From a phage: a stretch of DNA of 64,000 bases. Under the pieces are notes generated by a model. It ran no database searches, was not told the origin of the DNA, and saw nothing but the letters and a program-made list of their open reading frames with translations. The DNA lies in the NCBI GenBank assembly GCA_024790105.1, contig GCA_024790105.1_3053.1; one strand, 5' to 3'. The position numbers and the translations under genes are program-made. Positions 44,184 through 45,039 of the stretch are shown here, piece by piece; the stretch's first letter is position 1; the number at the start of each line of letters is the position of its first letter.

Positions 44184-44211
44184 TTTATTCTCCTCGGTAG
44201 TTGATAGGGTA

Positions 44212-44241
44212 ATAGTATCACAACTAAAACCCTATGTAAAC
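44212..44241 (-). promoter_or_regulatory. T4 early-type promoter cassette (downstream flank of ipI-like gene)
   Basis: GTTTAC - 18 nt - TACTAT, with -10 embedded in an inverted repeat. Confidence 0.5.
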
Positions 44242-44253
44242 AACTTTGTGAAA

Positions 44254-44511
44254 TTATTTTAAATCTTCTAATCGTTTCTTCATCTTAGAACCATTTTTAG
44301 CAATTTCTCCTGCATCGGAGCATAATGCTAAAAGTGCTTTAACTTTAGTTTGGTCTCCTTTAAAAGATGAAGGATCGACTGCAGCAGCAAGTTCTTTAAT
44401 ACGAGAGAAAAGACGCTCAGCTTCAGCTAAAGCCATTCCAAGCTTTACTTCCATGCCATGAGAAGATTCAGTAATAGTAGTTTTTGTAGCAAACTCTTTG
44501 AAAGTTTTCAT
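44254..44511 (-). CDS. ipI: Internal protein I-like (capsid-targeted small protein)
   Basis: 85 aa; N-terminus MKTFKEFATKTTITE resembles IP capsid targeting sequence; adjacent to 57B as T4 ipI. Confidence 0.55.
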   Translation of the reverse strand: MKTFKEFATKTTITESSHGMEVKLGMALAEAERLFSRIKELAAAVDPSSFKGDQTKVKALLALCSDAGEIAKNGSKMKKRLEDLK

Positions 44512-44541
44512 TTTATTTTCCTAATTAATTTTGATGAGGTA

Positions 44542-44571
44542 ATAGTATCACTACCTCATCAGTATGTAAAC
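44542..44571 (-). promoter_or_regulatory. T4 early-type promoter cassette (upstream flank of ipI-like gene)
   Basis: GTTTAC - 18 nt - TACTAT inside inverted repeat GATGAGGTA...TACCTCATC. Confidence 0.5.
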
Positions 44572-44583
44572 AACTTTGTGAAA

Positions 44584-45039
44584 TTATTTTAAATCATCTG
44601 CCCAATCGAGTTTAAGAGGCTCTTTGTATTCACGATCTAATACGACCGGAATTTGTACATCACCGCTAAATGATAAGGGCCCAACATTATAAGACAATGT
44701 TATATGCGGTGTGTAATCATCAAAATCATGTGTAGCACCTAGTGCCCGCGCATACATGTGTCGACAGCGCAGATATTCAGAATCTAGCACAAGTACAAGA
44801 GTCGATCCATCTTGTGTTTTCCATACTTCTAAATGCCCAGAAGAAGCTACTTCAAAACTTCCACTCGATGGAACATATGGAACATTTACTCTCGAATAAC
44901 ATATAGTCGAATGAATTTTTTCTCTAGGAACTGGATTAGGAACACGTAAAGAGCGCTGGAGTTCTTCCAGCGCGTCAAGTGTTAATTCTGAAAACTTAGC
45001 TGCTACATAAAGACCCGTTGAAAAGTCTTTAAATTCCAT
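44584..45039 (-). CDS. 57B: 57B / Acb1-like 2H phosphoesterase (anti-CBASS nuclease family)
   Basis: 151 aa; two H-x-T/S motifs (HSTI, HITL) typical of 2H phosphoesterases; position upstream of 57A as in T4. Confidence 0.75.

Follow-up and report, generated by a model that had tools for sequence, protein, structure and literature searches.

Direct repeats flanking the ip5 and ipII genes of a T4-like phage read as early-promoter modules that probably double as recombination homology

Two internal protein genes of a T4-like phage, ip5 and ipII, each lie between near-identical direct repeats, which raises the question of whether such repeats are sites of gene mobility or have another function. 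We analysed a window of 64,000 nucleotides (contig GCA_024790105.1_3053.1 of assembly GCA_024790105.1), which is a segment of a Tequatrovirus (T4-like) genome transcribed on the minus strand. A first-pass annotation had proposed that the repeats turn both genes into excisable and exchangeable units. We conclude that each repeat copy is, judged by its sequence, a T4-type early-promoter module on the transcribed minus strand and not a dedicated mobility site. The explanation we favour, with a probability of roughly 80%, is that these promoter modules also provide the homology for recombination of the genes they flank.

At the ip5 locus, the direct repeat spans 69 nt at 86% identity (44201–44269 against 44531–44599) and contains a perfect core of 33 nt (44233–44265 and 44563–44595), in agreement with the perfect repeat of about 34 bp first described on both sides of the open reading frame (ORF). 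Allowing a 2-nt indel extends this repeat to about 92 nt. The gene ipII is likewise bracketed, as had been claimed, here by a repeat of 32 nt at 97% identity (35622–35653 against 36018–36049), or about 45 nt when extended across an indel. The coordinates and sequences originally given for both loci were correct, and the repeats are longer than was then stated; the extended copies are those listed in Table 1. A 30-mer from the ip5 repeat has exactly two occurrences at up to three mismatches, compared with none in 100 dinucleotide shuffles, and the ipII repeat has two matches against zero expected. A chance origin of the repeats at both loci is ruled out by these shuffles.

Table 1. Positions of the repeat copies and genes at the two internal protein loci of the window
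Feature	Coordinates	Strand	Basis	Details
ipII/vs.8 repeat copy (downstream of ipII), promoter ahead of vs.8	35609..35653	-		-35 TTTACT 35652–35647; -10 TAGTAT 35629–35624
ipII, internal protein, 100 aa	35656..35958	-	phrog_7857, 7.7e-55	targeting peptide MKTYQEFITE
e/ipII repeat copy (upstream of ipII), promoter between lysozyme e and ipII	36003..36049	-		-35 TTTACT 36048–36043; -10 TAATAT 36025–36020
trna.4, small predicted membrane protein	43998..44183	-		right anchor of the ip locus
ip5/trna.4 promoter module (downstream repeat copy)	44178..44269	-	repeat alignment, promoter scan, fold	final codons and stop of ip5 (GATTTAAAATAA); -35 TTTACA 44240–44235; -10 TACTAT 44217–44212; hairpin 44204–44235; SD GAGGAG; trna.4 ATG at 44183
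ip5, internal head protein, 85 aa	44254..44511	-	phrog_3499, 1.2e-49	
57B/ip5 promoter module (upstream repeat copy)	44506..44599	-	repeat alignment, promoter scan, fold	final codons and stop of 57B (GATTTAAAATAA), then TTTCACAAAGTT; -35 TTTACA 44570–44565; 17-nt spacer; extended -10 TGaTACTAT (-10 at 44547–44542); hairpin 44532–44561; SD AGGAAAA; ip5 ATG at 44511
57B, Acb1 (anti-CBASS)	44584..45039	-	Pfam Acb1, 2.6e-60	3' end inside the repeat

Read along the minus strand, the modules of the ip5 locus share one order of elements: an A/T-rich, UP-like stretch over the stop codon of the upstream gene, GTTTAC, a 17-nt spacer, TACTAT, a hairpin at the -10, a Shine-Dalgarno (SD) sequence and an ATG. 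The A/T-rich GATTTAAAATAATTTCACAAAGTTG lies 5' of the -35 in both ip5 copies and contains the stops of 57B and ip5, and the ipII copies are preceded by GATAAATAACAG and AATCTATAGAGTTG. SD and start codon close the module in AGGAAAATAAAATG (ip5), GAGGAGAATAAAATG (trna.4) and AAGGAAACATATG (ipII), and the ATG of ipII at 35958 has a 61-nt leader. Both ip5 copies match TTTACW-N17-TAYWAT exactly, which is the published consensus of T4/PST PeSL (promoter-early stem-loop) promoters (PMC4122927), and both are also called by a generic sigma-70 scan, with a TG before the -10. The ipII copies (TTTACT-N17-TAATAT and TTTACT-N17-TAGTAT, again with a TG-extended -10) fit only the relaxed TAnnAT form and not the strict TAYWAT -10, and the generic scan placed them under its threshold. 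Early promoters of T4 are described as having GTTTAC at -36 to -31 and as rich in A around -40 (PMC1524935). The relaxed consensus occurs at 15 sites in the 64 kb, all on the minus strand, where shuffled sequences average 1.9, and almost every one of these sites stands 27–71 nt 5' of an ORF with SD and ATG. No TATAAATA late-promoter box was found upstream of ip5 or ipII, the only nearby one lying inside ipII (35889–35896).

Three promoter copies 12–39 kb apart, which flank no variable cassette, are 73–80% identical, compared with 71% for the ip5 pair. With distant copies as similar or more so, promoter function suffices to explain sequence similarity as such. Additionally, a module stands ahead of every gene in both ip loci, so that any ip gene is bracketed by its own copy and by that of the next gene. 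A transposon or a target-site duplication as the source of the repeats was rejected, since they are promoter modules of 45–92 nt common to all cassettes and no transposase is present.

Comparison with the ip loci of other T-even phages reveals cassette turnover with breakpoints bounded by the modules. Between 57B and trna.4, the conserved left and right anchors of the locus that contains ip5, there is no cassette in Jbel, one in the window, PP01 and UFV09 (ip5 or ipI) and in T4 (ipI), two in RB14, PST and ECO07P2, three in RB32 and four in RB15. Thus, the description of ip loci as hyperplastic is upheld, and a module is present at all 24 junctions of this interval across nine phages with 0–4 cassettes each. 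In Jbel the empty site holds a single module to which both window copies map (L009 779–878); precise excision from the window is predicted to leave a leader other than the one found there. Between the window and T4, homology is interrupted at 44260–44476 alone, which is the coding part of mature Ip5, and whichever pair of phages is compared, the breakpoints fall on module edges. Because the leader and the codons of the targeting peptide belong to the 5' homology arm, what is exchanged is the stretch that encodes the mature protein; the first-pass annotation had supposed that it was the whole gene. Its idea of exchangeable units stands in that cassettes are gained, lost and replaced with their boundaries in the repeats; excision itself we only infer.

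The modules are themselves mosaics in which three variants of the left half and at least three of the right half flank an invariant core of 13 nt, GTGATACTATTAC. This core occurs only at the ip5 locus; the ipII locus has its own core, CCTAGAATTGTGATA, which is likewise confined to it. The ip5>ipI module of RB14 combines the left half of the ip5>trna.4 module of the window with the right half of the 57B>ipI module of T4, as an unequal crossover would produce, and the ip6>trna.4 module of PST is also chimeric.

Gene order at the second locus is e>ipIII>ipII>denV>vs.8 in T4, e>ipII>vs.8 in the window and e>Ip4>vs.8 in RB14. The IpII of the window is 94% identical to T4 IpII across 86 aligned residues, positions 35927–36080 match the 5' modules of both ipII and ipIII of T4, and the copy downstream of ipII resembles the e>ipIII promoter of T4. 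No empty e>vs.8 site was found: when a synthetic excision product served as the query, the best 25 hits were all in two pieces, and a degenerate e>[promoter]>vs.8 junction pattern had zero hits among viral contigs. Thus, an insertion model for ipII is without the empty-site support that the ip5 locus has. The state of one cassette per locus (ip5; ipII without ipIII or denV) also occurs in other sequenced phages, ESh24, PP01, Manna and JEP6 among them.

We suggest that the modules serve two purposes. As their match to the consensus implies, they would have each cassette transcribed with host sigma-70 as soon as infection has begun. Along with the conserved leader and the capsid-targeting codons, they would also supply 30–150 bp of homology, at which the T4 recombination machinery, through unequal or inter-phage crossovers, may delete, insert, duplicate or replace the mature-protein part, as comparative genomics suggests. 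Exchange could then proceed without a dedicated recombinase. In T4, deletions form between repeats of 6–10 bp, and ipIII was lost in three of five evolved lines (PMC9391042). Thus, recombination at microhomologies of this length means that long repeats are not strictly required.

It is conceivable, if unlikely, that the repeats are promoters only, kept by selection for strong early transcription, and that cassettes turn over via microhomology or via whole-locus exchange through 57B/trna.4 and e/vs.8 in co-infection. The recurrence of the consensus on the transcribed strand, the similarity of distant copies that flank no variable cassette and the T4 deletions at microhomologies are all consistent with this, and flanking genes (57B/trna.4, e/vs.8) that are 93–98% identical between phages offer ample homology for whole-locus swaps. 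However, whole-locus exchange leaves unexplained the chimeric modules of RB14 and PST, the presence of 0–4 cassettes with a module at each junction and the position of breakpoints at module edges in all pairwise comparisons. The locus specificity of the two module cores also argues against promoter function as the whole account.

The hairpin around the -10 invites a different mechanism. In the upstream ip5 copy it has a 13-bp stem (-20.5 kcal/mol, z -4.1) and in the downstream copy a 7+4-bp stem (z -2.3), with z-scores of -6.7 and -4.8 for the folds of the 43-nt cores of these two copies. Hairpins were scored by per-sequence folds and not by pairs on one consensus structure, since A and C do not share the pairing register of variant B; on this measure z is below -2.9 in 21 of the 24 junctions (nine phages), chimeric junctions included. 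The stems differ among variants A, B and C, with one compensatory A-T to G-C change. At the ipII locus, the downstream copy reaches z -2.9; the one upstream, at z +0.16, has no significant hairpin. No intrinsic terminators were called in the repeats and the stems lack a following U-run, so that the terminator half of the PeSL definition gains no support here.

A dedicated structure- or site-specific mechanism that recognises this hairpin, such as an integron attC-like system or a cruciform-cutting nuclease, in place of general homologous recombination, is in our judgement very improbable. It would account for the retention of the hairpin despite differing stems and for the compensatory change, and also for the finding that all mappable crossovers fall in the loop that separates the two arms, where a crossover in RB49 was likewise placed and a binding protein speculated (Arbiol 2010). 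However, the loop is the longest invariant stretch, so crossovers can be mapped only there under any mechanism, and left arms A/C and right arms a/b differ by just one or two bases, so hairpins in chimeras need no selection. The upstream ipII copy and three of the 24 junctions are without a significant hairpin, and no integrase or recombinase gene lies in or adjoining either locus; none of the neighbours (Acb1/57B, 57A, dNMP kinase, trna.4, trna.3, trna.2, lysozyme e, nudE, vs.8) is a recombinase.

Integron cassettes offer a parallel, as they too form arrays of short, promoter-served, exchangeable single-gene units with a structured repeat at each boundary and adaptive accessory cargo. They differ from the loci of the window, which have no integrase, attI or attC, carry a promoter for each cassette and are proposed to use general homologous recombination. 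We regard as a long shot the broader proposal that some structure-specific process, such as template switching or the cleavage of a cruciform or hairpin, acts on this hairpin in every ip-locus module. The two loci would then work like an integron without an integrase, exchanging cassettes for injected anti-defence proteins, and Ip5 would be an injected inhibitor of a GmrSD-type or other defence system.

Least probable of all is that the spread of ip alleles is driven mainly by a nearby homing endonuclease that co-converts flanking markers, with the repeats as bystanders: an HNH homing-endonuclease-like ORF does lie about 1 kb from ip5 (42584–43216; phrog_14736, 6e-124), in the position held by tRNA-Gln in relatives, and PMC4122927 cites SegB as driving the preferential inheritance of the T4 tRNA region, but PP01, RB14, PST and T4 are without the HNH gene and yet have the same cassette variability and modules, no endonuclease gene adjoins the ipII locus in the window, and co-conversion moves alleles, leaving variable cassette number and chimeric modules unexplained.

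The cassette architecture has been known, and a crossover role of the promoter repeats at IP loci in the exchange of anti-defence cassettes among T4-like phages described, since 1994. According to Arbiol 2010 (PMC2839356), PeSL-like elements built on T4 early promoters had been noticed at the two IP loci in Repoila 1994 (EMBO J 13:4181); Arbiol 2010 and Comeau 2014 treat these elements too, and in GenBank an annotation of RB32 reads 'flanked by 43 bp direct repeat'. As that account presents the 1994 work, it has in common with the window both loci (57B–trna.4 and e–vs.8), cassette boundaries that each carry a T4 early promoter and a weak stem-loop rich in A/T, the ip genes (Ip5 being identical to that of RB15, Z35082.1) and the inference of cassette shuffling, and nothing of substance in it differs from what we describe.

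Arbiol 2010 treats the IP-locus elements as analogues and not homologues of PeSLs. The PeSLs of RB49/phi1, PST/T4 and nt-1/KVP40 (PMC2839356, PMC4122927) likewise consist of an A/T-rich region with the upstream stop, a sigma-70-type promoter, a stem-loop, an SD and an ATG, and their stem-loop may overlap the -10, as in the modules of the window. Both kinds of element are enriched in hyperplastic regions, at the boundaries of indels and replacements. In contrast, the RB49/phi1 PeSLs have near-perfect TTGACA/TATAAT promoters and G/C-rich stems with demonstrated terminator activity, and form mini-circles, which were detected by inverse PCR in RB49/phi1 and shown only there (Arbiol 2010). The modules of the window, known here from sequence alone, have A/T-rich stems with no U-tail and are not called as terminators.

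The protein encoded by ip5 is 100% identical to RB15 Ip5 (GenBank Z35082.1), and its relatives in phrog_3499 are annotated 'internal head protein'. The name ipI-like, under which the gene was first described, has to be given up, as Ip5 has no Pfam IPI_T4 match and only the N-terminal targeting peptide in common with IpI. A search against Pfam at E 0.01 gave no match at all, including to PF11634 (IPI_T4), for which T4 IpI scores 7.3e-54. The accompanying remark that the protein differs from T4 IpI was accurate: BLASTP similarity is confined to residues 1–22, and Pfam IPI_T4 begins at residue 20 of T4 IpI. The N-terminus of Ip5, MKTFKEFATKTTITE/S (the slash marking the predicted cleavage), is the capsid-targeting and propeptide part and aligns to MKTFKEFTSTTTPVSTITE/A of T4 IpI. 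Ip5 and IpII, which begins MKTYQEFITE/A, are the only ORFs in the window with N-termini of the form MKT(Y/F)(Q/K)EF...(I/L)xE. Cleavage by the T4 prohead protease follows an established (I/L)xE rule, and the predicted mature Ip5* comprises residues 16–85, with a pI of about 9.2.

By analogy, Ip5 is most likely injected to inhibit some restriction or defence system. Each of Ip1, Ip2 and Ip3 inhibits a GmrSD of its own (PMC12373910), and Ip5 resembles T4 Ip1 (IPI*), Ip2 and Ip3 (PMC12373910, PMC3012670) in its targeting peptide of the form MKTFKEF...ITE, its small size and its basic mature part. It also occupies the ipI slot, as T4 IpI does. However, mature Ip5 is without sequence similarity to T4 IpI, and its AlphaFold model (pLDDT 71) is a two-helix, all-alpha hairpin, whereas IPI* has an alpha/beta fold (PMC3012670). 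Searches for remote homology and fold were uninformative: a PDB sequence search with Ip5 returned E values above 0.7, a large protein database yielded just five close clusters, and Foldseek of the model against PDB returned only generic helical hairpins at E above 0.4. We suggest that Ip5 most likely enters the capsid by way of its N-terminal targeting sequence, is cut by the prohead protease behind ITE (residue 15) and passes into the host together with the DNA. There it probably blocks a single, specific nuclease of host defence, as Ip1, Ip2 and Ip3 do.

The ip loci represent a swappable set of injected type IV restriction inhibitors in T4-like phages. The cassettes carried help to set host range, which matters for the choice of therapy phages. 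With a distinct GmrSD variant now assigned to each of Ip1, Ip2 and Ip3, Ip5 is an obvious next candidate for such screens. The practical value of the present finding is narrow. Ip5 is an identified, widespread and highly conserved protein, which occurs in about 270 sequenced phages, mostly at 95–100% identity.

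The direct repeats that the first-pass annotation placed around two internal protein (IP) genes, ip5 and ipII, are real and correctly located, and are longer than it stated. Around ip5 they reach 69 nt, with a further 17-nt repeat directly beyond, or ~92 nt when merged by gapped alignment; around ipII they reach 32 nt, or ~45 nt once a 2-nt indel is allowed, with 0 chance matches. The 30-mer first reported beside ip5 occurs exactly twice at ≤3 mismatches, versus 0 in 100 dinucleotide shuffles.

Coordinates of the features discussed at and around the two ip loci
Feature	Coordinates	Strand	Size or identity
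ip5 ORF	44254-44511	-	85 aa
Direct repeat flanking ip5 (repeat search)	44201-44269 and 44531-44599		69 nt, 86% identity
Perfect core of ip5-flanking repeat	44233-44265 and 44563-44595		33 nt
ip5-flanking repeats, gapped alignment	44178-44269 and 44506-44599		~92 nt
Identical ends of 57B and ip5	44584-44595 and 44254-44265		12 nt
ipII ORF	35656-35958	-	
Direct repeat flanking ipII	35622-35653 and 36018-36049		32 nt, 97% identity
Late-promoter box in ipII	35889-35896	-	
Distant early-promoter copies	728-756, 27032-27060, 39864-39892	-	73-80% identity over 89 nt
HNH ORF	42584-43216	-	210 aa
tRNA-Leu	42491-42577		

Genes at both loci all lie on the minus strand, on which the repeat 5' of ip5 reads ...GAT GAT TTA AAA TAA (57B end) TTTCACAAAGTTG TTTACA-17 nt-TACTAT TACCTCATCAAAATTAATTAGGAAAATAAA ATG; the 3' copy has an identical layout between the ip5 end and the trna.4 ATG. 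Both copies fit TTTACW-N17-TAYWAT, the consensus published for the promoter-early stem-loops (PeSLs) of the PST/T4 pair (PMC4122927), and both are called by a generic sigma-70 scan, with a TG-extended -10; hallmarks of T4 early promoters are GTTTAC at -36 to -31 and an A-rich -40 region (PMC1524935). With a relaxed consensus, the 64-kb window yields 15 sites (shuffle mean 1.9); every one is on the minus strand, and nearly all precede an SD-ATG ORF by 27-71 nt. These include the ipII-flanking copies (-10 TAATAT and TAGTAT), both under threshold in the generic scan. By sequence, the repeats are promoter modules, one at every cassette boundary (a cassette being one ip gene between modules), a nature that the first-pass annotation overlooked.

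The ip5 pair ranks only fourth in similarity among the window's promoter pairs. Three early-promoter copies 12-39 kb apart (Table), which drive unrelated ORFs, are more alike and could be substrates for large rearrangements. Further copies of the upstream half TTTCACAAAGTTGTTTAC lie at 16347 and 27678, and neither core, GTGATACTATTAC or CCTAGAATTGTGATA, is found outside its own ip locus. Within the perfect repeat, 57B and ip5 share identical final nucleotides, GATTTAAAATAA (Asp-Leu-Lys-stop), and Ip9 also terminates in TTTAAAATAA; thus, these C-terminal codons, which recombination may have set, also serve as the A/T-rich 5' portion of the promoter that follows.

The -10 lies within an inverted repeat, which forms a 13-bp hairpin 5' of ip5 (z -4.1), a weaker hairpin 3' of ip5 (z -2.3) and one 3' of ipII (z -2.9), but none in the module 5' of ipII (z +0.16). 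The ip5 and ipII module stems are followed by no U-run, and no intrinsic terminator was called there. Across the 57B-trna.4 interval of the window and eight relatives the hairpin is kept in 21 of 24 junctions, a retention that needs little selection because the arm variants are only 1-2 bases apart.

Comparison with the ip loci of T-even phages, as the first-pass annotation had suggested, revealed the module at 24/24 junctions of this interval and a variable number of cassettes. Salmonella phage Jbel has none; the window, PP01, UFV09 and T4 have a single one; RB14, PST and ECO07P2 carry two each, RB32 carries three and RB15 four. Around a nearly invariant 13-nt core, GTGATACTATTAC, that holds the -10, the left side comes in three variants (A CTGATGAGGTA, B GGGTTTTAGTT, C TTTTAGATGGGGTA) and the right side in at least three (including a CTCATCAAAATTAATTAGG, b CCTATCAACTACYGAGGAG and c CCTATCAAAACAAA); the mosaic pairings seen are A-a, B-b, B-a, C-a, C-b and B-c. 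In the RB14 ip5>ipI junction, a left half of the window's ip5>trna.4 type is fused to a right half of T4's 57B>ipI type, as would be expected if a phage with ip5 and one with ipI had undergone unequal crossover. BLAST breakpoints agree. Against T4, homology is lost only across the coding part of mature Ip5 (44260-44476); on one side it is kept through promoter, leader and the first ~11 codons, and on the other it restarts exactly at TTTCACAAAGTTG. Both window copies align to a single 100-bp module of the Jbel locus (L009 779-878), which is a classic footprint of deletion or insertion between direct repeats. Sequence comparison shows that breakpoints and chimeras between natural phages fall inside the modules.

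The proposal that the repeats make these genes excisable, exchangeable units is therefore sensible in outline and partly supported: cassette number varies from 0 to 4, with breakpoints and chimeras inside modules, but the segment lost relative to T4 is the mature Ip5 part only, and Jbel is not a literal excision product of the window, because its leader is a third variant. Early sigma-70 transcription would start from each module, and crossovers between modules, in the same or co-infecting genomes, would use the general T4 recombination system, so that the segment coding for the mature protein is lost, gained or exchanged. As the 5' arm includes leader and targeting codons, a swapped-in segment would automatically be early-expressed and capsid-addressed. 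Relatives supply the experimental backing: in RB49/phi1, PeSL-flanked ORFs form mini-circles carrying hybrid PeSLs (PMC2839356); T4 undergoes deletions and amplifications at repeats down to 6-10 bp, and lost ipIII in 3/5 evolved populations (PMC9391042).

Arbiol 2010 (PMC2839356) cites Repoila 1994 for PeSL-like elements based on T4 early promoters at the two IP loci, and Comeau 2014 (PMC4122927) repeats that account and gives the PST/T4 consensus matched by the window. The RB32 GenBank record describes Ip7 and Ip9 as 'flanked by 43 bp direct repeat' and Ip5 as one that 'replaces ipI', and the window's single-cassette arrangements exist in database phages too. Thus, promoter-repeat ip cassettes were already known.

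At the second locus, gene order is e>ipIII>ipII>denV>vs.8 in T4, e>ipII>vs.8 in the window (also in Salmonella phage Manna and Escherichia phages JEP6 and F26) and e>Ip4>vs.8 in RB14. Window 35927-36080 matches the promoter-leader-targeting modules of both T4 ipII and ipIII, and the promoter 3' of ipII is a copy of the e>ipIII type, not of the T4 ipII>denV promoter. Comparison of window 35554-36053 with the T4 locus (L005 1113-1634, 2075-2634) shows that this phage has neither denV, the UV-repair endonuclease V gene, nor ipIII (Ip3, inhibitor of ECOR17 GmrSD). No empty e>vs.8 site was found, either among the 25 best matches to a synthetic excision product or with a degenerate junction pattern run against viral contigs. 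A late-promoter box, TATAAATA, lies inside ipII, 62 nt after the ATG; it could promote late vs.8 expression or have arisen by chance, with nine such boxes on the minus strand of the 64 kb.

The window is a Tequatrovirus, closest at the ip5 locus to Shigella phage ESh24 (97.9%). Its ip5 product, annotated Ip5 or IpV in PP01, RB14, RB32 and PST, matches phrog_3499 'internal head protein' (1.2e-49) and is 100% identical to RB15 Ip5 (Z35082.1, 'Bacteriophage RB15 DNA for Ip5, Ip9, Ip7, Ip8'). Likeness to T4 IpI is limited to residues 1-22 (MKTFKEF...ITE; 14/26 identical), and Ip5 has no Pfam IPI_T4 match (T4 IpI: 7e-54, residues 20-95). Thus, the protein does differ from T4 IpI, as first suggested, and the name 'ipI-like' is wrong for the mature part. 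The common segment is the capsid-targeting/propeptide part, the sole feature conserved among IPs (PMC3012670); its motif occurs in only two ORFs of the window, ip5 and ipII, the latter 94% identical to T4 IpII over 86 aligned residues. When ITE|S of Ip5 is aligned with ITE|A of IpI, the predicted mature form, Ip5*, spans residues 16-85 (pI ~9.2). The AlphaFold model (pLDDT 71) has a disordered N-terminus followed by a two-helix hairpin, in contrast to the alpha/beta fold of IPI* (PMC3012670), and Foldseek returned only generic helical hairpins.

The Ip5 family is narrow (5 clusters; 497 phage records), with ~269 records at ≥80% identity and ~228 carrying a ~48%-identical paralogue that, among the matches listed, adjoins the lysozyme gene, the other ip locus. 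In Escherichia phage HMD-9 (L013 1501-1782) this paralogue and the endolysin stop overlap by 4 nt, which leaves no promoter module in front; here the family has crossed between the two ip loci as a cassette without its own promoter.

Each of Ip1, Ip2 and Ip3 inhibits a distinct GmrSD, without cross-protection (PMC12373910). Because of this, and because Ip5 sits in the ipI slot, we give roughly even odds that Ip5 is injected and inhibits a single, specific defence nuclease of the host, most likely a type IV enzyme of the GmrSD kind; its target is the one testable item remaining from the ip-locus analysis. The upstream neighbour 57B is Acb1, an anti-CBASS nuclease (Pfam 2.6e-60).

An HNH homing-endonuclease-like ORF (phrog_14736, 6e-124; Pfam HNH match weak) lies beside tRNA-Leu, in the position of tRNA-Gln in PP01, RB14, PST and T4; no tRNA-Gln was found in window 39000-43400. 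Sixty-four phage records, including HY03, JEP6 and Ozark, share this arrangement. As this ORF is ~1 kb from ip5, co-conversion could drag ip alleles along.
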